From NCBI GenBank assembly GCA_028284075.1, contig JANQSL010000070.1, positions 41,480 to 105,479 on the forward strand: a stretch of 64,000 nucleotides of DNA. The letters run 5' to 3'. Position numbers and translations under genes: made by a program. Of this stretch, positions 2,465 to 15,257 are shown piece by piece; positions within the stretch are counted from its first letter, which is position 1, and the number at the start of each line of letters is the position of its first letter. The stretch comes from Candidatus Sumerlaeia bacterium (GTDB lineage Bacteria; Sumerlaeota; Sumerlaeia; SLMS01; JAHLLQ01). The notes beneath the pieces were generated by a model. That model searched no databases. It had not been told where the DNA came from and saw only the letters and a program-made list of their open reading frames with translations.

Positions 2465-3628
2465 TCACTGAAGAGCCCAAACTGACTGCGGCTCCTCCGT
2501 CAGAGGGTCGTACGGGGTTGCACCTGCGGGAATCGTTACGCTGCCACCCATCGGACCCAGATTGGCGTTGATCGGTGTTGATCGATACGTGGGTCCCACG
2601 GTGTAGGGCCATGAAGGATCACCCTGTTCATCGATCGTTGCAAAATAGGCATATGTTCCCATCGGATACTCCGGCGTGACACAGAACCGGCCGTTGAACT
2701 CGTCAAGATCTCCGAAGCTTTCGACGTACTCGAAATCCTGTGCGAACGTGCCCAGGGGATTCTGTGGATTGATTGGCGGACCATGGAGGTTGGACGACAG
2801 AACAGTTCCATCGGCGAGCGATGTGCGGTCCACAATATCACGAAGTTTCCACGACGGAATCAATCGCTTCAAGCCACTGCCGGAATCTCCCGGGTCAGAG
2901 TATCCGTAAGCGCCATAGATGGGAATTCCGTCGAAGGACCATGCCATGACCGGCGAATGCAGGGTGCCGTCATCACCGAGCTGCTCCGCCAGCAGCGGTG
3001 GATACGTGTGGTAATGGTACGCGCCACCCGCCTGTTCACCCGGAGGCAGCTTGATCTGTCTGTTGGCCGCGGGATGTCGATGACGTGGACCATGGCTCCA
3101 TCGATGTTCGTGCCGCACGTCTTTTGGCGGACCCATCATGCCTGGTGAAGGATGTCCCAGCCCGGCATCCAGCGGTCTGACCGCGGGCGCGTTATACAAC
3201 CATATATCTTCGTCTTCGTAACTGGTCGAATCCGACCAATTGAACAGATGCACCCCGTTTACCGCCACCCCAATGGCCCCGAGAGGCGTTTCTGAATGAA
3301 CGTTTGCCGGGTTTTCCGGCACCTCCAGAGGCAATACCCATGTGTTGTTTGATTCGGTCGGATACGTGGGTCCTCCACCCGTCCACGGGCCAATCGGATG
3401 AGAGGGAATGCTGTCCGAAACGATGTAAGCGTTTGTCGCCGTGTACCAAACCTCCTGGATGTCCGCCGGGATATCGTCCACAGCATTGTGGACGGTCGGA
3501 TCGGTGCTGTTCCCACGGGCTTCATCCCTGTTGAACAACCACTTTGTTACCGCGGGAGATTGAGAGAAAGCGATGCCGCTGAATGCTGAAAGAACAATTA
3601 GCGGAATGAAAGTGCGTTGAATGGCCAT
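2465..3628 (-). CDS. secreted YHYH-domain protein
   Basis: N-terminal signal peptide (MAIQRTFIPLIVLSAFSGIAFSQ) and an internal GGAYHYHTYPP motif characteristic of the YHYH family. Confidence 0.6.
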   Translation of the reverse strand: MAIQRTFIPLIVLSAFSGIAFSQSPAVTKWLFNRDEARGNSTDPTVHNAVDDIPADIQEVWYTATNAYIVSDSIPSHPIGPWTGGGPTYPTESNNTWVLPLEVPENPANVHSETPLGAIGVAVNGVHLFNWSDSTSYEDEDIWLYNAPAVRPLDAGLGHPSPGMMGPPKDVRHEHRWSHGPRHRHPAANRQIKLPPGEQAGGAYHYHTYPPLLAEQLGDDGTLHSPVMAWSFDGIPIYGAYGYSDPGDSGSGLKRLIPSWKLRDIVDRTSLADGTVLSSNLHGPPINPQNPLGTFAQDFEYVESFGDLDEFNGRFCVTPEYPMGTYAYFATIDEQGDPSWPYTVGPTYRSTPINANLGPMGGSVTIPAGATPYDPLTEEPQSVWALQ

Positions 3629-4527
3629 TATGATTCAGGTGTCCTCGCTGGATGGCGAAACAGGGATGGAACCGACTTTTGCCGTCATCGTCAAATGACA
3701 ATTCATTAAGATTTCATTAATTGAGTCATCGTGATGCCTGAATTGCTGACGAGACAGGGACTCATTTTATGCCGGCGCCGAGACACAAGCCATCACGTCT
3801 TATGTTATGCTTGTTCGCCGTTCCATCATCATCGCCAGGCTTTTCTGTGTTGGAAAGTCGACTTTGATGCGTCGCCTCAGGAGAGGTGAGCTTCCAATTC
3901 CGCGCCGTCAGCTCGATATCGGGATTCCCGATGCAACAGCCCGCCGGGATGTTGAAGAGTGGCCGCAACCGCAGCCGTCACCCGATTCCGATATACTCTT
4001 TCACTAAGACATTTATGCTCAGTCGATACGGGGTGAAAGGTTTAATCACCTCGGGGACGTGGTCAGACGTTCCGGTCGCACGACCATTCTGACACTTTGT
4101 GTGCCTGGGTCTGAAATTTGTCGCCGGAACGGATTCCGATGCATCGAGGCGCTTTCCAACGTACGGCGGTTTACCGCGAATCCCGCACAGGGAACGCCGG
4201 TTGTTCGCCGCAGAATCCGCCGCCAGATCGCCTACTGCCCGACGGATACGGTGTCGACCTGCAACGTCCCGCCGATGGCTCTCCACAGCATGGCACTGAC
4301 TTGCATTTCCGTATTGGAGTTGGGGGAGTTCCGTGGCATCAAACGCTATCGTGAAGGCTGTCAGGTCATTGACGGTAACTTGTTCACGCTGTAGACCGGC
4401 CCTGAATCTCAACAAACGAGCGGTTTTTACCGTCTCTCCCAAGTGAGAAGGACTAGCCCTTGCGAACCTCTCGGGGTCTGGTAGTGTCGAACGGGCTGGC
4501 GATAAAGTCCTGAGGAGTATCCAATCA

Positions 4528-6561
4528 ATGGCTGAACTGGAACGCAAAGTCAGAGAAATCAGACGTCGACTGATGTGGTTTCTTTTTGCCGAGCTGGCCA
4601 GCCGAACTCTGTTGGCCTCTCTTTTCCTGGCCGTTTTGTACCTCCTTGCCTCGCGGTTGATGGCCATTCCGGCTGAGCCCCTTATTGTGACCGCGGCCCT
4701 TCTAGCTGGAGCCATTGTTTCCGCGGCCGTCTGGACATGGGTGCGCCGGGTCGACAATATCAAGGCCGCCCTCGCCGCTGATGAAACCCTGGGGCTTGGC
4801 GAGCGCCTCTCCAGCGCTTTGCTGCTCAGGGACTTTCGCGATTCCACCGGTGCAGTTGCCGCTCTTGAAAGTGACGCTGTGCGTCATGCCTCGGCAATCG
4901 ACCCGGGCCGCGACTTCAAGTTCCGCGTCCCTCGCCTTTTTAAGCATCTGGTCTGGCCACTTGGTGTCTTCGCTATCATGTATCTCGCTTTGCCTCAGAT
5001 GAACCTCCTTGCAAAGACAGGGGAGGATCAGGACCAGGAGCAGACTGCCGAGGAGCAGAAGGCAACAGAGCGGGTGCGTCAGAGCGAGGCGCGCAAGATT
5101 CGCGAGCTGGCAAAGGAGGCACAGAAGGTCGACGAGGAGGCGAAAGTCGCTGAAGCCGGCAAATTTGCCAGGGAGCTGGAGCGTCTGAGTGAGGACCTTT
5201 ATCTCGGCACAAAGGATCGCAAGGCGGTGGCTGCGGAGTTGTCGCGTCTAGAGGATTCCGTGAAGTTGCAGAAGCAGAGCCTCGAGCGTAAAACCGAACC
5301 CTTCAAACAGATTTCCGGTCTCAGGCGCGCGGAGAAGACTCGCGGCCTTCAACAGTCCTTGAAGGATCAGTCCTTCGAGGATGCCGCGGCACAAATGATG
5401 AATCTGGCGCAGCAGCAGCTCTCTCAAATGAATGCCAATGATACGCAGCAGCTCGCGGAGGAGATGCAAAATCTCGCCGATGAGGTGAAGGAAAACGAGC
5501 AAATGGCGGATGCTCTGAAGCAGACGGCTGACGCACTCGAACAGCTTGCTCAGGAAAAACACCAGCAGGAACAGGCAGAACAGGCTCAGCAACAGCAGCA
5601 GGGTCAGCAGGGCCAACAAGGACAGCAGGGCAATCCACAGCAACAGCAGGGTGCGCAATCAGGTCAGCAGCAGGCTCAGTCGGGTCAGCAACCGAACAAC
5701 CAGCAACAGGGGGGCAGCCCACAGGCTCAGACGGCTCAGCAGGGACAGTCACAGCAACAGCAGCAGGCGGGCTCTTCCGGTGCACAGCAGCAGGCTCAAC
5801 AGGCAATGCAGAACGCGGCTCAGCAGATGCAACAGCAGCAGGAGTTGATGCAGCAGATGGCGCAATTGGACCAGCTTGCACAGCAAATGAACAATACCCA
5901 GTCGTCCATGTTAAACCAGGAAGGCCAGCAGGCGGGTCAGGGTGGCCAGAATCAACAAGGCCAGCAGAACCAGAGCGGCAGCGAGGGCCAGGGTCAGCAG
6001 CAAGGTCAGCAGCAAAACGGTAGCGGCCAGGGTCAACAGGGCCAGGGTCAGCAGCAGGGGGGGACCCAACCGGGGGGTCAGCAGGGTTCCGGTCAACAAC
6101 AGGGTCAACAGCCCGGCGGTCAGTCAGGGTCACAGCAGAGCTCGCAACAAGGGCAGGGCCAGGGTCAGGGTCAGGGGCAAGGCCAGGGGAGTGGCAACAA
6201 TCCCAACAATAGCCCCAACCAGGGTCAGTGGAGTCAGGGGCAGCCGCAGTCTTCCGGGGGCGGGAGCGGTCAGGCGGGTCGAGGCCGGGGAGGACAGCCA
6301 CCGGATGCGGGGCTTGTGGATACTCAGTTTGTCGACGAAATGATTCGCGGTGAAAAAAATGAGGGTGAGATTCTGGCGGTGATTGAAATCGATGCACCGG
6401 CAGTGAAAGGCGAATCGAACGTTCGCTATCGTCAGATTTATAACAGCCAGGCTCAGAAGGCCGCTGATGCAATGAAACAGAACGAAATCCCGTTGGGTTA
6501 TCGCAATAAAGTCCGCGATTACTTCCGGGCGATTAATCCCGAAAAGAGCGCGGAGCCCTGA
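4528..6561 (+). CDS. membrane protein with N-terminal double TM anchor, coiled-coil region and a ~250-aa Q/G/S-rich low-complexity domain
   Basis: ATG preceded by GAGGAG 8 nt upstream. Two hydrophobic helices at residues ~17-70. Charged heptad-like segment (res 160-340), then a poly-Q/G tract, then a non-repetitive C-terminal ~70 aa. The first gene of a same-strand, tightly packed gene run. Confidence 0.6.
   Translation: MAELERKVREIRRRLMWFLFAELASRTLLASLFLAVLYLLASRLMAIPAEPLIVTAALLAGAIVSAAVWTWVRRVDNIKAALAADETLGLGERLSSALLLRDFRDSTGAVAALESDAVRHASAIDPGRDFKFRVPRLFKHLVWPLGVFAIMYLALPQMNLLAKTGEDQDQEQTAEEQKATERVRQSEARKIRELAKEAQKVDEEAKVAEAGKFARELERLSEDLYLGTKDRKAVAAELSRLEDSVKLQKQSLERKTEPFKQISGLRRAEKTRGLQQSLKDQSFEDAAAQMMNLAQQQLSQMNANDTQQLAEEMQNLADEVKENEQMADALKQTADALEQLAQEKHQQEQAEQAQQQQQGQQGQQGQQGNPQQQQGAQSGQQQAQSGQQPNNQQQGGSPQAQTAQQGQSQQQQQAGSSGAQQQAQQAMQNAAQQMQQQQELMQQMAQLDQLAQQMNNTQSSMLNQEGQQAGQGGQNQQGQQNQSGSEGQGQQQGQQQNGSGQGQQGQGQQQGGTQPGGQQGSGQQQGQQPGGQSGSQQSSQQGQGQGQGQGQGQGSGNNPNNSPNQGQWSQGQPQSSGGGSGQAGRGRGGQPPDAGLVDTQFVDEMIRGEKNEGEILAVIEIDAPAVKGESNVRYRQIYNSQAQKAADAMKQNEIPLGYRNKVRDYFRAINPEKSAEP
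5560..6310. repeat. CAG/CAA/GGN-rich low-complexity DNA tract encoding the poly-Q/G domain
   Basis: Direct reading: reiterated cagcagggtcag / ggccagggtcag units, e.g. (GGNCAR)n at 6161-6200 encoding GQGQGQGQGQ. Generates long shadow ORFs on the opposite strand. Confidence 0.7.
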
Positions 6562-6642: not shown

Positions 6643-7602
6643 GTGAATCGGATCGGAATTCTGACAGCATCTGCTCTGGCAACCATGGCTTGCTTTTTTG
6701 TTGGCTGCGGGAATTCCGTGGAGTCCGGGGGTGCACGGGTGATTGGCGCCGTTGGCCGGCAGCCAGGTCAGTTTGCCAAGCCTCGCGCTGTGGCTTTTGC
6801 ACAAGACAACTCTCTGTATGTGATTGATCGTAGTGGCCGGATTCAGATCATGGATTCTGAAACCGGCGAGTTTATCAGCAAATGGAACCTGCCGGGCTGG
6901 TCCAATGGAACGCCCACGGGTATCACTGTCGACAATGATGGAGAGTCGCTCTGGGTTGCTGACACGCACTATCAGCAAATTCTACATTACGACCGCGATG
7001 GCAATATTCTGACGCAATGGGGCGAGGACGGCACCGATCCCGGGCAGATGATTTTTCCGACGGATGTCTGTCCCGATCCTGACGGGCGGACCGTTTGGGT
7101 GACCGAGTACGGTCAGCGCAGCCGCATCATGCAGTTTACCCGCGACGGCGAATTCGTCCGCGAGTGGGGGAGCGGCGTTTATGAGTACAGCGATCTGCAA
7201 CGCCCGATGGCGATCGCCGTTTCGGACGACGGCAGCATCTTCGTTGCGGACGCGGGTAATCATCGCATTCTGATCTTCGACCGCGACCTTGGGTTGAGAG
7301 CAACCTGGGGTGAACCGGGAGAGGAGCCGGGCCAGTTGAAGTATCCCTACGATATTGCATTCGCGCCCGATGGCACTCTCTACGTTTGCGAATACGGGAC
7401 CAGTCGTGTGAGTCGCTTCACTGCGGACGGGGATTTTCTCGGCCTTTGGGGAGGTCCGGGTCATGATGCGGGACGCCTCTACTCACCCTGGGGCGTGGCG
7501 ATTGCGCCGAACGGTTTTGTTGCGGTGGCCGATACAAACAACGGACGGATTCAGATTATCGAGCAACCAGAGCGGCGATTCAATTCGGGAGGATCCGCTT
7601 AG
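6643..7602 (+). CDS. NHL-repeat beta-propeller lipoprotein
   Basis: GTG start. Lipoprotein-type signal with FVGC lipobox. Repeated NHL-like blades (e.g. IAVSDDGSIFVADAGNHRILIFD; VAIAPNGFVAVADTNNGRIQIIE). Confidence 0.7.
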   Translation: MNRIGILTASALATMACFFVGCGNSVESGGARVIGAVGRQPGQFAKPRAVAFAQDNSLYVIDRSGRIQIMDSETGEFISKWNLPGWSNGTPTGITVDNDGESLWVADTHYQQILHYDRDGNILTQWGEDGTDPGQMIFPTDVCPDPDGRTVWVTEYGQRSRIMQFTRDGEFVREWGSGVYEYSDLQRPMAIAVSDDGSIFVADAGNHRILIFDRDLGLRATWGEPGEEPGQLKYPYDIAFAPDGTLYVCEYGTSRVSRFTADGDFLGLWGGPGHDAGRLYSPWGVAIAPNGFVAVADTNNGRIQIIEQPERRFNSGGSA

Positions 7603-10535
7603 TGGACATTCACGCCGCGCGTCCTGAGTACCTTTGGCTGCTCCTGTTGATTCCTGTCGTGCTCTATGCCTCGCGCAGCCTCCGCAGTGTCGAGTCCGGT
7701 CGTCGTGTCTTCATCATCGGGTTGCGGACGTTGATTGTTTTGCTGCTGATTCTTGCACTGTCGAAGCTCGAAGTTGCCCGCCGCAGCCGTGATCTGACCG
7801 TTTACTACCTTCTTGATCAGTCCGATTCCGTTCCGCCCCATTTACAGGAAGCGGCCGTGGGGCTTGTTCAGTCAATGAGCAGGGAGAAGCAACGAGACGA
7901 CGAAGCCGGTCTGATCGCTTTTGGTGGCAATGCTTCCATCGAGTCACTTGCAATCAACACCTTTGAGTTCGACGGCCGCATCAATTCCGTTATCGACGGC
8001 GTACGTACCGATATCTCTTCGGCCGTGAGGCTCGCCCTCAGTGCATTTCCCAACAACCGAATGAAGCGCATTGTGCTTTTGACGGATGGGAACGAAAACA
8101 GTGGCAGTGCGGTCGAAGTTGCACGCCTTGCCCGTAACAACAATGTTCCGATCGATGTTGTGCCGCTCCGCTACGATCAGCGTGCGGATGTGCAGATCGA
8201 CAAGCTTATCGTTCCACAGCGGACGACAAAGGATGCTCCTTTTGATGTAAAGGTCTTCCTGTCATCGGAATCAGATGTTAATGGGCGGCTTCGCCTTTAT
8301 CGAGACGGCCAGCTGATCGTCGATCAGGATGTTGATGTGACCGCCGGGAGGAACGCACCGCTTGTTCTGCCACAGCGTCTGGACGACGGTGGTTTTCACC
8401 GTTACAGCGCTGAGATCGAAGTCGCTGGTGATGAACGTCCTCAGAACAACCGGGCTCGAGGCTTCACTCATCTCAAGGCGGAGCCCCGTGTTCTTTACGT
8501 CGAAGGGGACCAGACAAGCACCAATTTTCTCTATCCCGCCCTCGAGCTGGAGGACATTCGGGTCACGTTTGCCGATCCGAACGAGATTCCGCTGAACATC
8601 GAGGAACTGCAAGACTACGACAGCGTCATCCTTTCGAATGTCCATGCAAATGAGATGACGTACGATCAGATGACAATGATCGAACGTGCCGTGCACGATC
8701 TCGGTCTGGGCTTCATCATGATCGGCGGAGAGAACAGCTACGGAGCCGGTGGTTATCAGGATTCGCCCATTGAAAAGGCGCTTCCCGTATCCATGGATGT
8801 GAAGCAAAAGAAGGTTTTGCCCAACGGTGCACTGGTGATCGTGCTCCATACCTGTGAAATTCCCCAGGGGAATTCGTGGGCGCGTGAGATCAGCATTGCC
8901 GCCCTTAACGTTTTATCCTCCCAGGACTATTTCGGTTTGCTGTACTACGGCGCAAAGCAGGGCATCGGAGCCGGGGGTGGAATGGGAGGATGGGGTGAGC
9001 ACTGGCTCTGGGATCCGGGGCTGCAGATGACGGGTGACAAGCGCGCCATGCGGGCAAAGATTCGAGGCGTGCAGCCTCTCGACATGCCCACGTTCGACCC
9101 GACGCTTCAGCTTGCTTACGACGGGTTGAAGGACGTCAAAACAGAAGCAAAGCACATCGTCGTGATTTCCGATGGCGATCCGGCTCCGCCCAATCAGCAG
9201 CTTGTCAACGCGATCCGCGATGAAGGGATTACGGTGTCAACCATCGCTATTGCCCCGCACCACGGTCAGACAGTGGAAACGCTACAGGACATGGCTTACT
9301 GGGGTGCCGGTAACTTCTATTATCCGAAGACGTCGCGGGAGCTTCCCCGCATATTCGTCAAGGAAGCCTCGATTGTTCGCAGATCACTGATTTTCGAAGA
9401 GCCCTTTTTCCCAAAGTATGACACTTATTCAGAGGTTCTTGAAGGTCTACAGGGGATGCCGCAGCTCGACGGATATGTTGTCACCTCCGACAAGGAGCTC
9501 GCGACCATTCCGTTGCGCACGGAAAAGGACGATCCGCTGCTGGCGCACTGGCGATACGGTCTTGGCAAGACCGTGGCGTTTACAAGTGATGCAAAGAACA
9601 AGTGGGCTTCCGCATGGGTGGACTGGGACGGGTACGGGAAATTCTGGAGCCAGGTCGTGCGCTGGTCTCTGCGGGAAACCAGCAGCAATAACCTTCAGGT
9701 GAATACTGAACTGCAGGGCGGCAAGGGTATCATCACCGTCGATGCCGTCGATATCGACGGCAACTTCGAGAACTTTCTCGATTTCAACACCACCGTTCTC
9801 TCTCCCGAACTTGAACCGATGGACGTTGAGGTTCGCCAGGTTGGTCCGGGACGTTACCAGGGAACCTTTGATGCCACGGACGTTGGCACGTACATGGTGC
9901 GGTTGTCTTCCGGTGAGGGGGATCAACAGCAGAATGTGGTGACGGGTGCATCGCTTTCCTATTCGCCCGAGTACGAAGCGGCGCGTTCGAATGACGAGTT
10001 TCTGGAGAAAATCGCGAAGGAATCCGGAGGCCGCATTGCCGGTTCTCAGGATTACAGCGCATTCGATCGACGGGATCTGCGAGCGACGAATCGTCCCAAG
10101 CCGGTCTGGGAATGGCTGCTTCTCGCAGGCCTCCTCCTGGTGCCGGTCGATGTGTTCGTTCGTCGCGTGTATCTTGATTGGGGCGAACTGGCAACCGCGT
10201 TGGCAAAGCCGTTCAGAAAGACGGCACCCGCGGAGCGTACCGAAGCGATGGGGTCGTTGATGGCAGCCAAGAAACGTGCAACCTCCTCGAAAGAGGAAGA
10301 CCGGGAGCGCGACGATGCACGGCGCGAATTCCGTGAACGTTTGCAACAGAACGAACCTCAGGCTGGTGAAGAAGGTTCTGTTTTCGATGCAGCAGATCAG
10401 AGCGGGCGTCAGGCGCCCGCCCGTCATCGTGAGAAACAGACCTACAGTGCCAGCGACGGCCCTCAGCGGACTGGCGGCGGAAGCAGTCTGTCAGAACTCA
10501 AGCGCGCCAAACAACGCGCCCGGAAGAAGATGTAG
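7602..10535 (+). CDS. BatA-like membrane protein: N-terminal double-TM (aerotolerance-regulator N-terminal type) + VWA domain + large extracytoplasmic region + C-terminal TM
   Basis: GTG start overlapping the upstream stop (TAGTG). Two N-terminal TM helices. VWA MIDAS motif LDQSDSV, with a second VWA-like block HIVVISDGDPAPP. C-terminal hydrophobic helix followed by a charged tail. Confidence 0.7.
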   Translation: MDIHAARPEYLWLLLLIPVVLYASRSLRSVESGRRVFIIGLRTLIVLLLILALSKLEVARRSRDLTVYYLLDQSDSVPPHLQEAAVGLVQSMSREKQRDDEAGLIAFGGNASIESLAINTFEFDGRINSVIDGVRTDISSAVRLALSAFPNNRMKRIVLLTDGNENSGSAVEVARLARNNNVPIDVVPLRYDQRADVQIDKLIVPQRTTKDAPFDVKVFLSSESDVNGRLRLYRDGQLIVDQDVDVTAGRNAPLVLPQRLDDGGFHRYSAEIEVAGDERPQNNRARGFTHLKAEPRVLYVEGDQTSTNFLYPALELEDIRVTFADPNEIPLNIEELQDYDSVILSNVHANEMTYDQMTMIERAVHDLGLGFIMIGGENSYGAGGYQDSPIEKALPVSMDVKQKKVLPNGALVIVLHTCEIPQGNSWAREISIAALNVLSSQDYFGLLYYGAKQGIGAGGGMGGWGEHWLWDPGLQMTGDKRAMRAKIRGVQPLDMPTFDPTLQLAYDGLKDVKTEAKHIVVISDGDPAPPNQQLVNAIRDEGITVSTIAIAPHHGQTVETLQDMAYWGAGNFYYPKTSRELPRIFVKEASIVRRSLIFEEPFFPKYDTYSEVLEGLQGMPQLDGYVVTSDKELATIPLRTEKDDPLLAHWRYGLGKTVAFTSDAKNKWASAWVDWDGYGKFWSQVVRWSLRETSSNNLQVNTELQGGKGIITVDAVDIDGNFENFLDFNTTVLSPELEPMDVEVRQVGPGRYQGTFDATDVGTYMVRLSSGEGDQQQNVVTGASLSYSPEYEAARSNDEFLEKIAKESGGRIAGSQDYSAFDRRDLRATNRPKPVWEWLLLAGLLLVPVDVFVRRVYLDWGELATALAKPFRKTAPAERTEAMGSLMAAKKRATSSKEEDRERDDARREFRERLQQNEPQAGEEGSVFDAADQSGRQAPARHREKQTYSASDGPQRTGGGSSLSELKRAKQRARKKM

Positions 10536-10537
10536 TC

Positions 10538-11425
10538 ATGGGTAATGACTGGAGAAACAAGGTCATCCTTGGCGATAATTTGCCGGTCCTCCGTGGGATG
10601 GAAGACGAGTCGATCAATCTGATCTATATTGATCCTCCGTTCAATACGGGAAAAGCCCAGCGTCGCGATCGCATCAAGTCAGTGGCATCGGAAAACGGGA
10701 CCCGCAGCGGATTTGCCGGGAAAAAGTACGATGCGGTACGCCTTGGTTCCCACGCCTGGTGCGATCGCTTTGACGACTATTACGCATTTTTGCGTCCGCG
10801 GCTGGAGGAGGCTCATCGCCTTTTGAAGAGGACAGGAACGATGTATTTTCACATCGATTATCGCGAAGTGCATTATTGCAAGATTCTCCTGGACGAGATT
10901 TTCGGAAGAGACTGCTTTCTCAATGAGATTGTTTGGGCGTACGACTATGGTGCGCGGACGAAACGGCGTTTTCCACCAAAGCATGACAATATTCTGGTTT
11001 ATGTGAAGGACCCGAAGAACTACGCCTTCTATTCCGAGCAGATTGATCGCATACCCTATATGGCGCCGGCACTCGCGGGGCCCGAGAAGGCAGCACGGGG
11101 AAAGCTCCCCACGGATGTATGGTGGCACACAATCGTTTCACCAACGGGGAAGGAAAAAACCGGCTGGCCGACACAAAAGCCACTGGGCGTTTTGCGCCGC
11201 ATTATTGCCGCCTCCTCTCAAGAGGGAGATTTGGTTATGGATTTCTTCGGAGGTAGCGGAACCACGGGAGTGGCGGCGGCTGAAACCGGCCGAAGGTTTA
11301 TCCTCGTGGATGAAAGCCTCGAGGCATTCGAGCTTATGAAAGAGCGTTTTGCCGGAGTGGAGAACATTCAGTTCGTAAACCCCAAAGGAAGCACGACTGC
11401 GAAAAGGAGCACCCATCATGGCTGA
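10538..11425 (+). CDS. DNA methyltransferase, beta-class N6A/N4C family (PF01555-like), orphan
   Basis: Motif IV IYIDPPFN precedes motif I FFGGSGTT, with PTQKP between them, which is the beta-class order. Starts 3 nt after the upstream stop and overlaps the MoxR start by 8 nt. Confidence 0.8.
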   Translation: MGNDWRNKVILGDNLPVLRGMEDESINLIYIDPPFNTGKAQRRDRIKSVASENGTRSGFAGKKYDAVRLGSHAWCDRFDDYYAFLRPRLEEAHRLLKRTGTMYFHIDYREVHYCKILLDEIFGRDCFLNEIVWAYDYGARTKRRFPPKHDNILVYVKDPKNYAFYSEQIDRIPYMAPALAGPEKAARGKLPTDVWWHTIVSPTGKEKTGWPTQKPLGVLRRIIAASSQEGDLVMDFFGGSGTTGVAAAETGRRFILVDESLEAFELMKERFAGVENIQFVNPKGSTTAKRSTHHG

Positions 11426-12425
11426 CATGCAGCAGCTCGCCGCCGAGTTCCGCCAGGAGTTCGACGCCGTTTATAACGAAATTCAGAAGGTGATTGTCGG
11501 TACCGATAATGTCATCGAAGGCGTGTTGATGTGCCTCTTCTCCGGCGGCAACGTGCTGCTCGAAGGTGTCCCGGGTCTCGGCAAGACAATGCTGATTCGC
11601 ACGTTGGGAGAGGTGCTCGATTTGCCTTTCTCGCGCATTCAGTTTACTCCGGATCTGATGCCTGCCGATATCATCGGTACAAACATCGTGCAGGAGGACC
11701 CTGAAACCGGTCGTCGTGATTTCCAGTTTGTGCATGGTCCGCTTTTTTCAAATCTCGTGCTTGCGGATGAAATCAATCGTGCGACACCGAAGACGCAGTC
11801 GGCGATGCTCGAAGCCATGCAGGAGAAGCGCATTACCGCTGCAGGCACGACGCACGAACTGGATCAGCCGTTCTTTGTCATGGCGACACAAAACCCGCTG
11901 GAGATGGAAGGCACGTATCCATTGCCGGAGGCACAGCTGGATCGTTTTCTTTTCAAGCTGATGGTGAATTTTCCGAATCGCGGTGAGCTGAATGAAATTA
12001 TCAATCGCACCACCAGTGCGGAAATGCCACGAGTGTCCCGGGTCATGAACAAGGAGCGCCTTTTGCACTGGATGAATTTCGTGCGCAGTATTGTGGTCGC
12101 TCCTCATGTTCAGGACTATGCCGTTCGCCTGCTTCTCTCGACTCATCCCGAAAGTGAGTACGCCACTGACATGGTGAAACGTTATGTCCGTTTCGGCGCA
12201 TCGCCACGTGGTGCTCAGGCTTTGATTCTGACAGGCAAGATCAAGGCTCTCCGCGCCGAGCGCTATAATGTGGCCTTTGGCGACATTGGTGCCGTGGCGA
12301 CAAACACTCTTCGTCACCGCTTGATTCTCAATTTTGAAGGTGAAGCGGAAGGGGTCACTGCAGACATGGTGATAGAGGATTTGTTGAAGAACGTTCCTCG
12401 TGAGGCGGAAATGGCGGCAAGATAA
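11418..12425 (+). CDS. MoxR-like AAA+ ATPase
   Basis: Walker A GVPGLGKT and Walker B LADEINRA with the typical MoxR length. AAGGAG RBS upstream. Confidence 0.85.
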   Translation: MADMQQLAAEFRQEFDAVYNEIQKVIVGTDNVIEGVLMCLFSGGNVLLEGVPGLGKTMLIRTLGEVLDLPFSRIQFTPDLMPADIIGTNIVQEDPETGRRDFQFVHGPLFSNLVLADEINRATPKTQSAMLEAMQEKRITAAGTTHELDQPFFVMATQNPLEMEGTYPLPEAQLDRFLFKLMVNFPNRGELNEIINRTTSAEMPRVSRVMNKERLLHWMNFVRSIVVAPHVQDYAVRLLLSTHPESEYATDMVKRYVRFGASPRGAQALILTGKIKALRAERYNVAFGDIGAVATNTLRHRLILNFEGEAEGVTADMVIEDLLKNVPREAEMAAR

Positions 12426-12477
12426 TCGTGTCGGCGGGCGCACGAAGGCGAAGCTGGAAATGCCGGAAAAGGACTGA

Positions 12478-13383
12478 ATGGCATACATGGCCACGGCCGA
12501 ACTGAAAACACTGTTGGAACCGGAACTGCTGGCACGCCTCGATCAGCTTGAGGTGTTGACTCACCGTGTGTTTCGGGGGCGGCAAAAGGGCGAAAGGCGG
12601 TCACGCAAGAAGGGGCAGTCCGTCGAGTTTGCCGATTATCGCGAATACGTTCCGGGAGACGACACGCGTTATCTCGACTGGAATATTTTTGGACGTCTTG
12701 AGCGTCTTTACATCAAGCTTTTCCTCGAGGAAGAGGATCTTGCCTTTTATGTTATTGTCGATTCGTCCGCATCGATGAACTATGGTCATCCGGTGACGAA
12801 GTTTGAGTATGCACGGAAACTGGCAGCGGCACTGGGATATGTCGCGCTGAAAAATCAGGACAAGGTTGGAGTCAGCGACGCCAAGGAGCGTGTTGTTTCC
12901 CGCTTTCGTCCGGCGCGCGGCAAAGCACAGCTCACTAAAATGCTCAACTACCTGATGACGCTGGAGCCGGGGGACCGAACGAACCTGATCGAATCCTGTC
13001 GTGACTTCGTGTTTCAGAATACACAGGCTGGCATCGTCGTTTTGATCAGTGATTTTCTGGACGAGCGTGGATATGAGGACGCGCTGAAGCACTTCTTCAT
13101 GCGCAATTACGAGGTGTACTGCATTCAGGTTCTCAGCTCGGAGGAAAGGGATCCGACACAGCTTGGTCACCTGGAGCTCGTCGATGCCGAGACGGGAGAG
13201 AGGCAGGAAGTTACTGCAAGTGATGCATTGATCAGGCAGTACAAACAAACCGTTGAAACATTCTGCGGGGGACTAAGGGACTGGTGCACGTCCCACGGCA
13301 TGACCTATCTGGCGGCCACGACGGATCTTGGTGTTGATCAGATGCTGCTCAGTTACCTGCGTCAGAGGGGGCTGCTGCGGTGA
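12478..13383 (+). CDS. DUF58 domain protein (VWA-like partner of MoxR)
   Basis: DUF58 signature VEFADYREYVPGDDTRYLDWNIFGR...VIVDSSASM. Confidence 0.8.
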   Translation: MAYMATAELKTLLEPELLARLDQLEVLTHRVFRGRQKGERRSRKKGQSVEFADYREYVPGDDTRYLDWNIFGRLERLYIKLFLEEEDLAFYVIVDSSASMNYGHPVTKFEYARKLAAALGYVALKNQDKVGVSDAKERVVSRFRPARGKAQLTKMLNYLMTLEPGDRTNLIESCRDFVFQNTQAGIVVLISDFLDERGYEDALKHFFMRNYEVYCIQVLSSEERDPTQLGHLELVDAETGERQEVTASDALIRQYKQTVETFCGGLRDWCTSHGMTYLAATTDLGVDQMLLSYLRQRGLLR

Positions 13384-15257
13384 CGTTCCTCCAAAGCCTT
13401 TGGTGGGCTGGTCTCTTTTCACTCCTTCCTCTGATCGTCGTGATGTATCTGCTGAAGCTGAAGCGGAAGCGTGTTATCATTCCATCCACGCTGCTGTGGC
13501 GACGATCCGTGCAGGATCTTGTCGCAAACGCCCCGTTTCAGAAACTGCGAAACAACCTCCTACTGTGGCTGCAACTTCTGTTTTTGGCACTTCTGATTCT
13601 GGCGTTTTTACGTCCTGTGATGAAGCTGGAAAGCCAGGCAGGCACGACATTGATTCTGCTGATCGACAATTCCGCCTCGATGCAGACAATGGAAGGTACG
13701 CGAACTCGCCTCGAAGCGGCAAAACTCGCCGCCAGAGAGTCCATCGAGACGCTTTCAAACCGGGATGAGGCGATTATCGTTACCTTCAGCGATCGTACAA
13801 ACATCGTTCAAACACTGACCAGCGATCGTGCCCTGCTGGAAGCAGCTCTCGAGTCCATTGAAGCGCGCGATGTTGAGACTTCTCTCTCAGAAGCGGGTCT
13901 GATTCTTCAAAGTCTGACCTCCACCGTGGATGCGGAGGGCGCCCGGTTACCACGCGAAGATACCAAAACGATTATCCTGAGCGATGGTGTTGTCAACGAT
14001 CTGGCATCGCTATCAGACGTACCCAATGTCGAGTATGTGCGGATCGGTGAAACGGCGGATAATCTCGGCATAACCGGCCTGGATGTCCGAGAGTCGTTCA
14101 GTGATACGGTGGAGTATCAGATTTTTGCATCTGTTACAAACTCAGGTGAGGAAGAGCAGGAAGCGTTTGTTGAATTACAGGTCGACGGAGAGGTTCTTGA
14201 CTTGAAGTCGGTTACCGTTCCGGCCGGCAATACGGAAGCGGTGGTTTTTTCAACAGCGGAAGTTGAGGAAGGCATTGCCACCGTTCGGCTGGACTATAAG
14301 GACGATTTTCCCCTGGACAACAGCGTTGTCGCGCAAATCGTCCCGCCGGGTGAGATTGATGTGTTGCTTGTAACCACCGGGAACGCTTTTCTTGAGGAAG
14401 TGTTCTCTATCGATCCCAGAGTTCGAACAAGCATCATTCGTCCGACGGACTACACGCCGCGGGAGGACTATGATATTGTTGTCTTCGACAACTGTGAAAC
14501 CGGTGAAATCCCCGCCGGCAACTTTCTTTTTATCAATGCACTTCCACCTGTTTCCGGTTTCAAGTCTGGTGAAGAGGCAAGTGTCGATAATCCTGAGGTT
14601 ATCGACTGGAATCGCGTTCATCCCCTGACTCGATTCGCCAACTTTGAGGAGGTTCTCATCGGTAACGCGATCGTGTACGAAACACCACGATCAGCCCTGC
14701 ATATTCTGGAGGCCGTTGAGACGGATCTGATTACTCTCTATGAAACGGAGACGCAGCATGTCGTGGTCATTGGATTCGACATTTTCAAGTCTTACTGGCC
14801 CCTTGATGTCTCGTTTCCGATCTTCATGTCGAATCTGATCGAGTATTTCGCGGAACTGAGTCAGGCGGGCTTTCGCCCTGTCTACCACACGGGTCAGACA
14901 ATTCCCATCTACCCTGGCGACGAAGACCAGGTTGCGATCGTCAAGACCCCTTCCGGAAAAACGGTGGAGTTTTCCTTTGAGGGAATCAGCACCGCCTATC
15001 TGACGGAAACCTCCGAGGCGGGCATGTATGAAATCGATTTCGACAAGAGCCCGGATCGTGCGCTGCCGGTTAACCTGTTAAGCATGGACGAATCGAAGAT
15101 CGCTCCACAGGACGAGATCAATATCGGTGGGCGGGAAATTGTCGGTACGGGAGAAGTCATCAAAACGAATCAGGAAGTCTGGCACTGGTTTGCCCTCGCC
15201 GCTCTGCTGATCATGCTTGTGGAATGGCTTATCTACTGCAAGCGAACGTTTATGTAG
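13380..15257 (+). CDS. BatA-like VWA membrane protein (N-terminal double TM + VWA + C-terminal TM)
   Basis: GTG start overlapping the DUF58 stop (GTGA). N-terminal LWWAGLFSLLPLIVVMYLL...IPSTLLW motif of BatA N-domains. MIDAS LIDNSASM. C-terminal helix WHWFALAALLIMLVEWLIY. Confidence 0.75.
   Translation: MTFLQSLWWAGLFSLLPLIVVMYLLKLKRKRVIIPSTLLWRRSVQDLVANAPFQKLRNNLLLWLQLLFLALLILAFLRPVMKLESQAGTTLILLIDNSASMQTMEGTRTRLEAAKLAARESIETLSNRDEAIIVTFSDRTNIVQTLTSDRALLEAALESIEARDVETSLSEAGLILQSLTSTVDAEGARLPREDTKTIILSDGVVNDLASLSDVPNVEYVRIGETADNLGITGLDVRESFSDTVEYQIFASVTNSGEEEQEAFVELQVDGEVLDLKSVTVPAGNTEAVVFSTAEVEEGIATVRLDYKDDFPLDNSVVAQIVPPGEIDVLLVTTGNAFLEEVFSIDPRVRTSIIRPTDYTPREDYDIVVFDNCETGEIPAGNFLFINALPPVSGFKSGEEASVDNPEVIDWNRVHPLTRFANFEEVLIGNAIVYETPRSALHILEAVETDLITLYETETQHVVVIGFDIFKSYWPLDVSFPIFMSNLIEYFAELSQAGFRPVYHTGQTIPIYPGDEDQVAIVKTPSGKTVEFSFEGISTAYLTETSEAGMYEIDFDKSPDRALPVNLLSMDESKIAPQDEINIGGREIVGTGEVIKTNQEVWHWFALAALLIMLVEWLIYCKRTFM

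Follow-up and report, generated by a model that had tools for sequence, protein, structure and literature searches.

A conserved membrane protein with a glutamine/glycine-rich tract heads a Bat-like MoxR-DUF58-VWA operon in a Candidatus Sumerlaeota bacterium

Analysis of a 64-kb stretch of DNA (hereafter, the window) from a Candidatus Sumerlaeota bacterium revealed that the open reading frame (ORF) at positions 4528 to 6561 of the (+) strand is a genuine conserved gene, the first of an operon, encoding a 677-aa membrane protein designated here as protein X. We lean toward the view that protein X serves a Bat-like MoxR-DUF58-VWA envelope system as its scaffold or tether in the membrane. The frame is unbroken from the ATG at 4528 to the stop codon at 6559–6561, i.e., it is the single uninterrupted ORF that the initial annotation had presumed, and a ribosome-binding site (GAGGAG, 4512–4517) lies 10 nt 5′ of the ATG. 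Orthologs are full-length and share 35–56% identity with protein X, with ~82% for the protein of the closest relative, locus L012. When the window was searched with an X-family profile (A2, built with the window protein itself among its members), the 4528–6561 ORF was the sole match (E = 3e-165), and protein X fits the 550-position family profile over its full length, from the transmembrane (TM) hairpin through the conserved loop, TM3, and helical domain to the C-terminal YF module. The operon is preceded by a conserved stretch at 4405–4527 on the (+) strand, its 5′ leader or promoter region: the blastn alignment to L012 begins at 4405, 123 nt 5′ of the gene, and nothing upstream of this point aligns. 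A promoter scan found no consensus sigma-70 promoter in the leader, and Rfam and tRNA scans of the entire 64-kb window gave zero matches.

The genes that follow, all on the (+) strand, encode proteins of recognizable types. Immediately downstream is an NHL-repeat beta-propeller (6643–7602; Pfam NHL, E = 3e-33) with a lipoprotein-type signal, consisting of an N-terminal hydrophobic segment and a Cys (…FFVGC). It is followed by a 977-aa VWA/GATase1_like membrane protein (7602–10535; identified by Pfam, TM segments, a MIDAS motif, and synteny), in which an N-terminal TM hairpin, a VWA domain (MIDAS DQSDS), a second VWA domain, a GATase1_like domain, a C-terminal TM segment, and a basic tail succeed one another. 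Farther downstream are a MoxR-type AAA+ ATPase (11418–12425; Pfam AAA_3, E = 6.5e-62; 71–92% identity to its relatives), a VWA-like DUF58 protein with the MIDAS motif DSSAS and without TM segments (12478–13383; Pfam DUF58, E = 2.4e-43), and a membrane protein with BatA-N and VWA domains (13380–15257; Pfam BatA, E = 6.6e-12; VWA_2, E = 1e-13), which has a TM hairpin, the MIDAS motif DNSAS, and a C-terminal TM segment. A periplasmic location is predicted for the NHL lipoprotein, from its lipobox, and for the VWA domains of both BatA-like proteins, from their TM layout and basic C-tail; for the BatA type, a periplasmic VWA domain has been demonstrated in Borrelia BB0173 (PMC5700661).

We found that the order X-NHL-VWA/GATase1_like-[insert]-MoxR-DUF58-BatA/VWA recurs in those Sumerlaeota loci whose length suffices to reveal it, that the NHL gene directly follows X in every Sumerlaeota locus, and that X is linked to the MoxR/VWA run in all Sumerlaeota loci examined. 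Outside this phylum, linkage was seen in one genome of Hydrogenedentes, three of Anaerolineae, and one of Bacillota. Specifically, the Hydrogenedentes order is X-NHL-VWA; X adjoins MoxR-DUF58 in Anaerolineae L022, L034, and L037 and in Bacillota L027, and the order X-MoxR-DUF58-BatA-VWA is present in L022 and L027. The initial annotation had placed X at the head of the MoxR/VWA gene run, which is indeed its position, and had suggested a structural partner of that system, a proposal now well supported because the linkage is kept in all Sumerlaeota loci and recurs in other phyla. Co-directional adjacency across genomes thus marks X as a component of a Bat-like MoxR-DUF58-VWA system, but not in the Planctomycete-like members, where the X gene stands alone, away from any MoxR gene, so the functional tie between X and MoxR may not be universal.

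Operons of the MoxR-DUF58-VWA or Bat-like type are widespread; bat genes of Leptospira have reportedly been studied for oxidative stress. The operon described here resembles them in its AAA_3 MoxR ATPase, its DUF58 protein, and its BatA_N and VWA membrane proteins with MIDAS motifs, among which X is genetically embedded. Classical Bat operons differ in having DUF4381, BatC/E (TPR), and BatD and in lacking X-like, NHL, and GATase1_like components. The DUF58 matches found on plasmids belong to classical Bat operons only, with no X-like gene, and a tblastn search of plasmids with X returned no match; the Sumerlaeota literature does not mention the X operon system. Protein X represents an extra conserved transmembrane component that Bat-like operons have in Sumerlaeota and also in certain genomes of Hydrogenedentes, Chloroflexi, and Bacillota.

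Profile searches indicate that X belongs to a large, multi-phylum family for which neither Pfam nor NCBIfam has a model. At E ≤ 1e-30, the family comprises 2,743 representatives (clusters at 50% identity), with the top 150 being mostly full-length matches. Its close relatives are all Sumerlaeota MAGs (the related-locus search used an alignment of 11 closer sequences), and its range also includes Planctomycetes-like, Hydrogenedentes, Chloroflexi, and Bacillota genomes. Its members are built alike: a basic N-tail is followed by a TM hairpin, a highly conserved helical loop, TM3, a folded helical domain, a linker of variable composition with one conserved helix in it, and finally a short conserved C-terminal module. 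The linker differs between groups: Planctomycete-like members have a coiled coil with a Cys motif, Chloroflexi have low complexity of the acidic or the Q/G kind, and Sumerlaeota have a Gln/Gly/Ser tract from which charged and hydrophobic residues are nearly absent; the flanking modules are conserved. Defining this family, with its more than 2,700 clusters, would give annotators a new model.

Three hydrophobic segments were detected in protein X (residues ~17–45, 51–72, and 137–157). The first two form a helical hairpin, TM1-TM2 (4576–4743), recognized by hydropathy and by AF2 helices at residues 2–45 and 51–72 with pLDDT >90. A basic N-tail with an invariant R14 precedes the hairpin, and the family mean of K+R is 5.0 in this tail versus 0.3 in the hairpin loop, which argues for an N-in orientation. 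The helical loop between TM2 and TM3 (residues 73–136; 4744–4935; pLDDT ~90) is the most conserved segment, with the motif AAxxADxxLGLxERLSSAL and with A81, D85, L90, R93, and A117 invariant among 21 sequences. On the positive-inside rule, this loop is predicted to face the cytoplasm and, as the most conserved part, makes X a candidate link from the cytoplasmic ATPase to the periplasmic VWA domains. TM3 (residues ~137–157; 4936–4998), supported by hydropathy and AF2, was called in 23 of 24 family members, the exception (P0013) being missed by the hydropathy threshold. Together, hydropathy and the positive-inside rule suggest an N-in/C-out topology, which would place ~520 residues, including the Q/G tract, in the periplasm. 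The earlier description of a membrane-anchored protein therefore holds, but in place of the N-terminal double TM that it likened to the BatA-like proteins, X has three TM segments. BatA_N (PF07584) gave no match to X even at E ≤ 10, and homology of X to BatA_N was rejected.

Beyond the membrane segments, AF2 predicts a folded, coiled-coil-like domain at residues 174–361 (5047–5610) with seven helices and a pLDDT of ~90. The region had been annotated as a coiled coil; its helical nature stands, but it is a seven-helix folded domain and not one long coil. The Q/M/A-rich helix at residues 411–470 (5758–5937), which contains …QQAMQNAAQQMQQQQELMQQMAQLDQLAQQM…, is modeled as one long helix (pLDDT ~90) and is aligned and conserved family-wide, also in members that have no Q/G tract; 36 of 40 residues at 431–470 are identical to those of the L012 protein. 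The C-terminal conserved module (residues 591–677; 6298–6558) consists of a segment GEILAVIEIDAP..GES and then a helix-turn-helix ending in IPLGYRNKVRDYF. Within this module, G613, P655, and Y665 are invariant and F666 nearly so, 82 of 87 residues are identical to L012, and Chloroflexi and Bacillota homologs also carry it. In the full-length model, in which the TM and helical parts exceed a pLDDT of 90 and residues 364–411 and 473–633 fall below 50, confidence in the module is confined to helices at 634–669 (pLDDT 70–84). Modeled in isolation from 98 sequences, it gave a helix-turn-helix of moderate confidence (mean pLDDT 62.6). No Pfam model matched the module, nor did any other model match its consensus.

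X, its N-terminal and C-terminal portions, two sets of relatives (21 and 63), and the consensus of the profile were all scanned against Pfam and NCBIfam, which yielded only sub-threshold N-terminal matches to DUF4175 (PF13779); matches of X or its relatives to ProA, Rad50, SMC, and EzrA were dismissed as coiled-coil noise. The DUF4175 matches raise the question of whether X is a divergent ortholog of the DUF4175/TIGR02302 proteins that shares their envelope- or exopolysaccharide-related function. DUF4175 is the top Pfam match of the family N-terminal consensus (E = 0.0017, 16.9 bits, positions 2–104 of 825), and it was matched by 3 of 21 and 7 of 63 members (the 63 at E ≤ 0.01), always co-linear from the N terminus, with a best E of 1.1e-5. 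The aligned part in the relatives, DUF4175 positions 2–120, corresponds to the TM hairpin and loop 73–136, i.e., both families begin with a TM pair followed by a conserved helical segment. However, the relatives score 15.6–21.3 bits, and none reaches the gathering threshold of 27.3; no more than 120 of the 825 profile positions align, largely TM helices; and the window protein itself has no match at E ≤ 10. By neither the gathering cut-off nor alignment over most of the profile does X qualify as a DUF4175 member.

The case for TIGR02302 is one of resemblance. This model ('aProt_lowcomp') presumably describes two to three N-terminal TM helices plus Gln/Gly-rich low complexity outside the membrane, which is similar to the three TM segments, Q/G tract, and predicted C-out topology of X. 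Gln/Gly-rich membrane proteins of this general type would then already have been noted, and the surprise of X is moderate. The context of TIGR02302 is likewise the envelope and EPS: a TIGR02302 gene is a target of the CenR envelope regulon in R. sphaeroides (PMC9275681), and an A. caulinodans TIGR02302 mutant overproduces EPS according to a reference cited in PMC6842974. Nevertheless, TIGR02302 matched neither the window protein (E ≤ 10), nor the 63 members (E ≤ 0.01), nor the consensus sequences (E ≤ 1), so X is not assigned to it by HMM, and the C-terminal module matches no model of either family. Word-indexed protein searches with the N-terminal profile (2 matches) or the C-terminal profile (109 short, unannotated matches) returned no DUF4175-annotated protein. 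X also differs in being shorter (~550–680 aa), in having its own '…IPxGxRxxVRDYF' C-terminal module, for which there is no model, and in its phyla (Sumerlaeota, Planctomycete-like, and Chloroflexi). We therefore regard orthology with these proteins as possible but doubtful. AdvA, an essential division protein of Acinetobacter baumannii with two TM helices and an N-terminal DUF4175 match (PMC7481262), shares with the X family this weak DUF4175-type membrane module; beyond the module, AdvA and its gene neighborhood probably differ from X.

The Q/G tract spans residues 345–590 (5560–6297) and consists of 44% Q, 22% G, and 9% S, and charged, aromatic, and aliphatic residues number five, one, and one, respectively, among 206 tract residues. 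Q+G peaks at 76% per 100 aa, and among the 112 stop-to-stop ORFs of the window that are 150 aa or longer, no other exceeds 24%, which confirms the extreme Q/G/S low-complexity region annotated at about 5560–6310. The same annotation had called such tracts rare in bacterial proteins; this is true within the window but not within the X family, since Chloroflexi members also have Q/G tracts. The tract is interrupted by the confidently predicted conserved helix at residues 411–470. On either side of it lie two disordered segments: LC1, which is Q-rich (residues 362–410; 5611–5757; pLDDT <50 over 364–411; Q reaches 52% across 345–430), and LC2, which is G/Q/S-rich (residues 471–590; 5938–6297; pLDDT <50; 39% Q, 33% G, and 12% S) and contains the TRF arrays.

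At the DNA level, the tract is degenerate and contains short, imperfect arrays of 6, 9, 12, and 15 nt (by TRF), among them the (GGNCAR)n run that had been noted earlier, which is present in LC2 at 6150–6189 (period 6, 6.7 copies, 82% match). A strong AT skew (+0.5) extends across the tract, and long spurious ORFs occupy the strand opposite the X ORF. The term microsatellite-like, applied to the tract before, proved overstated: the longest perfect tandem is 24 nt (2 × 12), no k-mer longer than 19 nt is repeated exactly, Gly-Gln is written with seven different codon pairs, four Gly codons are in use, and Gln is encoded by 84 CAG and 24 CAA.

These properties bear on the suggestion that the tract is a contingency locus, in which slipped-strand mispairing in CAG/GGN repeats would alter tract length or frame between strains. 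Degenerate arrays of 6 to 15 nt are present, and ortholog indels do cluster in the tract, with five inside and none outside between L001 and L014. However, perfect tandems and exact repeats are as short as described and the codons mixed, and all ortholog indels are small and in-frame. Tract length, whose comparison among strains or metagenome reads had been proposed, ranges from 181 to 271 residues in Sumerlaeota orthologs, with P0010 (64 residues) as the sole exception. At 76.6% nucleotide identity, the window protein and that of L012 have the same length, 677 aa, and differ in the tract by no more than three small in-frame indels; identical full-length X proteins were recovered in independent assemblies and samples. 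Slipped-strand length variation was thus not borne out, and we consider a contingency locus very improbable.

Comparison with L012 further revealed that 71/86 and 93/117 residues are identical in the tract versus 136/169, 140/174, and 82/87 elsewhere, and that synonymous outnumber non-synonymous codon differences both in the tract (74:39) and outside it (190:76). Given the equal protein length, the three small in-frame indels, and this synonymous-dominated pattern, the tract, which is predicted to be disordered, is under purifying selection. The pattern is also a coding signature and argues against explaining the tract, or even the entire ORF, as an artefact of assembly or as low-complexity DNA that does not code, a reading that the odd composition, AT skew, and spurious opposite-strand ORFs might suggest. 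More than 20 independent assemblies show the same architecture, with the N- and C-terminal modules in one frame flanking the tract, and with no exact repeat longer than 19 nt, there is nothing to collapse in assembly. Collapse was rejected as very unlikely, also in view of the identical proteins from independent assemblies, and an artefactual or non-coding origin can practically be dismissed. The tract is therefore neither hypervariable nor an artefactual repeat. As a long, nearly charge-free, disordered, and probably extracytoplasmic region under purifying selection, it offers a useful case for studying the role of low-complexity regions in bacteria.

In the scaffold or tether role that we favor, X would sit N-in/C-out in the membrane, with loop 73–136 on the cytoplasmic side alongside MoxR and DUF58, and in the periplasm the Q/G tract would serve as an entropic spacer, flexible and uncharged. 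Such a spacer could allow the C-terminal module to extend to a partner in the periplasm and dock there, be it the wall, the NHL propeller, or the MIDAS site of a VWA domain, and the conserved cytoplasmic loop may couple this assembly to the MoxR ATPase. The design would be comparable to that of TolA and TonB with their extended spacers: an anchor in the inner membrane, then a long stretch that is helical or of low complexity, and at the C terminus a small domain for docking. In TolA, Gly-rich linkers join the domains. The likeness is an analogy of design, as X shows no sequence or fold similarity to TolA or TonB. X also differs from them in its three predicted TM segments with a conserved cytoplasmic loop and in an operon that encodes a MoxR ATPase and no ExbBD/TolQR-type proteins.

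Alternatively, the tract may be a prion-like or phase-separating domain that self-associates in the periplasm or at the membrane, be it as an amyloid, a hydrogel, or a condensate, with the MoxR AAA+ system controlling that state or remodeling it. The best 80-residue window contains 47 Q/N, and the Michelitsch-Weissman threshold (at least 30 Q/N per 80 consecutive residues) is reached across residues 285–597. Moreover, the tract is nearly without charge and predicted to be disordered, the Q-rich helix 411–470 could drive coiled-coil assembly, and an AAA+ remodeler is encoded in the operon. Its ~80% identity to L012 also exceeds what a pure entropic spacer would need, which hints at a composition- or sequence-specific role. 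In these respects, namely, high Q/N density, low charge, and predicted disorder, it is akin to the Q/N-rich prion-like domains of bacteria, of which that of Clostridium botulinum Rho is an example, but it differs in being predicted extracytoplasmic, hence apart from the ATPase, in its very high Gly content (33% in LC2), and in being split by a conserved helix. Aromatic residues usually serve as the stickers when phase separation is viewed in sticker-spacer terms, and the tract has one. Finally, homologs carry acidic low complexity or a plain coiled coil at this position, so a prion-like property would not be family-wide, which favors a spacer over a sequence-specific prion domain. We consider the prion-like alternative unlikely. 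A more specific version, in which a reversible periplasmic gel or condensate of the uncharged Gln/Gly prion-like domain organizes the VWA and NHL proteins and MoxR sets its state across the membrane via the X loop, appears quite improbable; if true, it would constitute an extracytoplasmic, ATPase-controlled phase-separating scaffold in bacteria.

The remaining gene of the run (10538–11425, (+) strand) encodes an N6/N4 DNA methyltransferase (Pfam N6_N4_Mtase, E = 5e-49). Its slot between the VWA/GATase1_like and MoxR genes is variable: the methyltransferase gene is found solely in the window, L012, and L013, and other relatives have 23S_rRNA_IVP or NTP_transf_5 there. It is an insert and no core component of the operon.

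The gene at 4528-6561 (+) is real and well conserved, and its 677-aa product, termed X here, represents no novel class of element but a Q/G-linker variant, specific to this lineage, of a large, unannotated membrane scaffold family tied to MoxR-DUF58-VWA systems; the useful outcome is a defined X family, its operon linkage and evidence of selection on its disordered tract. The DNA comes from a Candidatus Sumerlaeota (BRC1) bacterium, and every close relative detected among the collected genomes was a Sumerlaeota or Sumerlaeia MAG. The frame is unbroken, with a ribosome-binding site (GAGGAG) 10 nt 5′ of the ATG. Hydropathy and an AlphaFold2 model agreed on the layout of X: a basic N-tail leads into a TM hairpin (aa ~17-45 and 51-72), which a helical loop (aa 73-136) connects to the third TM segment (aa ~137-157); then come a folded helical domain modeled with confidence (aa 174-361; pLDDT about 90), a Q-rich disordered stretch (aa 364-411), a single long confident helix (aa 411-470), a G/Q/S-rich disordered stretch (aa 473-633) that extends into the beginning of the C-terminal module and a short C-terminal helix-turn-helix (aa 634-669). 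The hairpin proposed in the initial annotation is therefore present, within a total of three TM segments instead of two.

The extreme Q/G region noted earlier lies far above the local background: Q+G peaked at 76% over the best 100-aa window of X versus a maximum of ≤24% in the other 111 stop-to-stop ORFs (≥150 aa) of the window. Specifically, Q and G make up 44% and 22% of aa 345-590 (nt 5560-6297), and the 206 residues of this Sumerlaeota tract outside the helix part (aa 431-470) include 5 charged, 1 aromatic and 1 aliphatic residue. The underlying DNA is no true microsatellite, and the earlier term microsatellite-like overstates its regularity. TRF returned only short degenerate arrays, the longest perfect tandem was 2 × 12 nt, no word longer than 19 nt recurred exactly within 5501-6350, and seven codon pairs encode the Gly-Gln dipeptides. 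Long ORFs in other frames or on the opposite strand also cover the tract (5321-6472 [−], 5248-5658 [−], 5546-5848 [+] and 5942-6343 [+]); we rejected them as genes and regard them as by-products of the stop-poor CAG/GGN composition. The synonymous/non-synonymous pattern favors the (+) frame of 4528-6561 over these ORFs.

An assembly artefact was rejected, as the N- and C-terminal modules are in frame on both sides of the tract in 11 close homologs and identical full-length proteins came from independent samples or assemblies (P0001 from an NCBI MAG and a Logan run, and P0002 from two JGI samples). Slipped-strand length variation, also suggested initially, was not borne out either, given the short degenerate repeats and the equal length (677 aa) of the ortholog in L012, the closest relative, whose operon shares 76.6% nucleotide identity with that of the window. 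The two tracts differ by three in-frame indels (3, 3 and 1 residues), which led us to reject a hypervariable or phase-variable tract. Identity between these orthologs was 71/86 and 93/117 residues in the tract and 136/169, 140/174 and 82/87 in the non-repetitive parts, with synonymous:non-synonymous codon differences of 74:39 and 190:76 inside and outside the tract, respectively. Across 11 complete orthologs from Sumerlaeota MAG contigs, tract length ranged from 193 to 271 residues, and the loci L001 and L014 differ by 5 indel events within the tract and 0 outside. This gathering of indels in the tract at longer distances is ordinary low-complexity behavior, not phase variation.

A family profile of 550 positions, in which Q/G columns counted as insertions, matched 2,743 of 1.84 billion representative proteins at E ≤ 1e-30 and 7,348 of them at E ≤ 1e-10; the best 150 were mostly full-length (530-580 aa), and no family member had a Pfam or NCBIfam assignment. 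Residues R14, A81, D85, L90, R93, A117, A286, G584, G613, P655 and Y665 are invariant in a 21-sequence alignment, and the helix at aa 411-470 is kept throughout. This alignment, together with the Chloroflexi loci, revealed that the flanking modules are conserved while linker type differs between lineages: Sumerlaeota have Q/G/S low complexity, Chloroflexi either Q/G (L037, L029 and L035) or acidic Q/E/D/S low complexity, and Planctomycete-like members an ordinary coiled coil together with a CxxCxGxGCxxC motif. The motif, presumably periplasmic, occupies the place of the second Q/G segment in P0012, P0013, P0016, P0018 and P0021 (Planctomycete-like and Hydrogenedentes) and might form a disulfide or bind metal. 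Among the 147 best representatives, 15 have 100 or more low-complexity residues. The Anaerolineae MAG locus L037 (2089-3975) carries a more regular tract, QQGQQGQQ, directly 5′ of MoxR-DUF58, suggesting that the family has gained Q/G linkers independently or repeatedly.

K+R counts across the family average 5.0 in the N-tail versus 0.3 in the TM1-TM2 loop, a bias indicating an N-in orientation; aa 73-136, the most conserved part of X, would therefore be cytoplasmic and everything past the third TM segment periplasmic. This predicted extracytoplasmic position, the very high proportion of Gly, the almost complete lack of aromatic residues and the unrelated linker types of homologs all speak against a prion-like or phase-separating tract, a minority reading to which Q/N richness (47 per 80 residues, easily above the Michelitsch-Weissman threshold of 30) and conservation above what a pure spacer needs lend some weight. 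The most economical model makes X the transmembrane scaffold for the MoxR-DUF58-VWA system. On the cytoplasmic side, the conserved loop would contact MoxR/DUF58, neither of which has a TM segment; on the periplasmic side, the helical domain and the flexible Q/G spacer would hold out a small C-terminal docking module to meet VWA or NHL components, or the wall. Modeled in isolation, this module folded only partially (mean pLDDT 62.6), an outcome consistent with partner-dependent folding, though no proof of it. The design is analogous to that of TolA and TonB, to which no homology of X was found. The VWA domains of both BatA-like operon proteins are placed in the periplasm because each protein combines a TM hairpin, its loop rich in Arg, with a TM segment at the C-terminus, followed in the 977-aa protein by a basic tail; the experimentally mapped topology of Borrelia BB0173 agrees with this placement (PMC5700661).

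The only recurrent link to a known family was DUF4175 (PF13779), matching 3/21 and 7/63 members and the N-terminal consensus, but not X itself, in co-linear alignments limited to profile positions 2-120 of 825. TIGR02302, an alpha-proteobacterial family described as having 2-3 TM helices and Gln/Gly-rich low complexity outside the membrane, gave no match over X, the 63 members or the consensus sequences. With DUF4175 scores (15.6-21.3 bits) below the cut-off of 27.3 and TIGR02302 unmatched, membership in either family is not established; a common N-terminal membrane module is plausible. Published work on both families indicates an envelope connection: in R. sphaeroides, CenR targets a TIGR02302 gene (PMC9275681), an A. 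caulinodans strain mutated in a TIGR02302 gene makes excess EPS according to a reference cited in PMC6842974, and AdvA, which bears DUF4175, is an essential division protein of A. baumannii (PMC7481262).

The gene order X, NHL, 977-aa VWA/GATase1_like, variable insert, MoxR (AAA_3), DUF58, BatA_N-VWA holds in Sumerlaeota loci of sufficient length. As proposed initially, X heads this conserved block, because homology to L012 begins just 123 nt upstream of it. The synteny break falls exactly at 4405; the preceding ~780 bp (3629-4404), which separate a YHYH-domain gene (2465-3628, −) from the conserved leader of X, showed no confident gene, Rfam hit or homology to L012. In the whole window (1-64000), there were no tRNA genes and no Rfam families at the gathering threshold. 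X-NHL-VWA/GATase1_like is kept in a Hydrogenedentes homolog and X-MoxR-DUF58-BatA-VWA in Anaerolineae L022 and Bacillota L027; in Planctomycete-like members, X stands alone, with no MoxR gene nearby. The plasmid-borne classical Bat operons that were found, unlike the operon of the window, contain no X-like gene.

The second operon gene (6643-7602, +) encodes an NHL beta-propeller with a lipobox in a lipoprotein-type signal (MNRIGILTASALATMACFFVGC…), its top NCBIfam similarity being to ScyF-like NHL proteins, far under threshold. The VWA/GATase1_like protein (7602-10535, +) comprises a TM hairpin, VWA, GATase1_like and a C-terminal TM segment, followed by a long basic tail (last ~120 aa, …KRAKQRARKKM) that is probably disordered and forms a second low-complexity cytoplasmic element of the operon. 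In the window, L012 and L013 alone, an N6/N4 DNA methyltransferase gene occupies the insert slot; the window copy (10538-11425, +; Pfam E 5e-49) shares its last 8 nt with the start of MoxR and had no apparent restriction partner in its vicinity. Other Sumerlaeota relatives have 23S_rRNA_IVP or NTP_transf_5 genes there or between MoxR and DUF58, a pattern that resembles a hot-spot at which small accessory genes insert. The MoxR-DUF58 gap, ~40 bp in the window (12424-12465), has ~630 bp extra in L012 (12461-13089) and contains two small genes (NTP_transf_5 and a 75-aa ORF) in L001.
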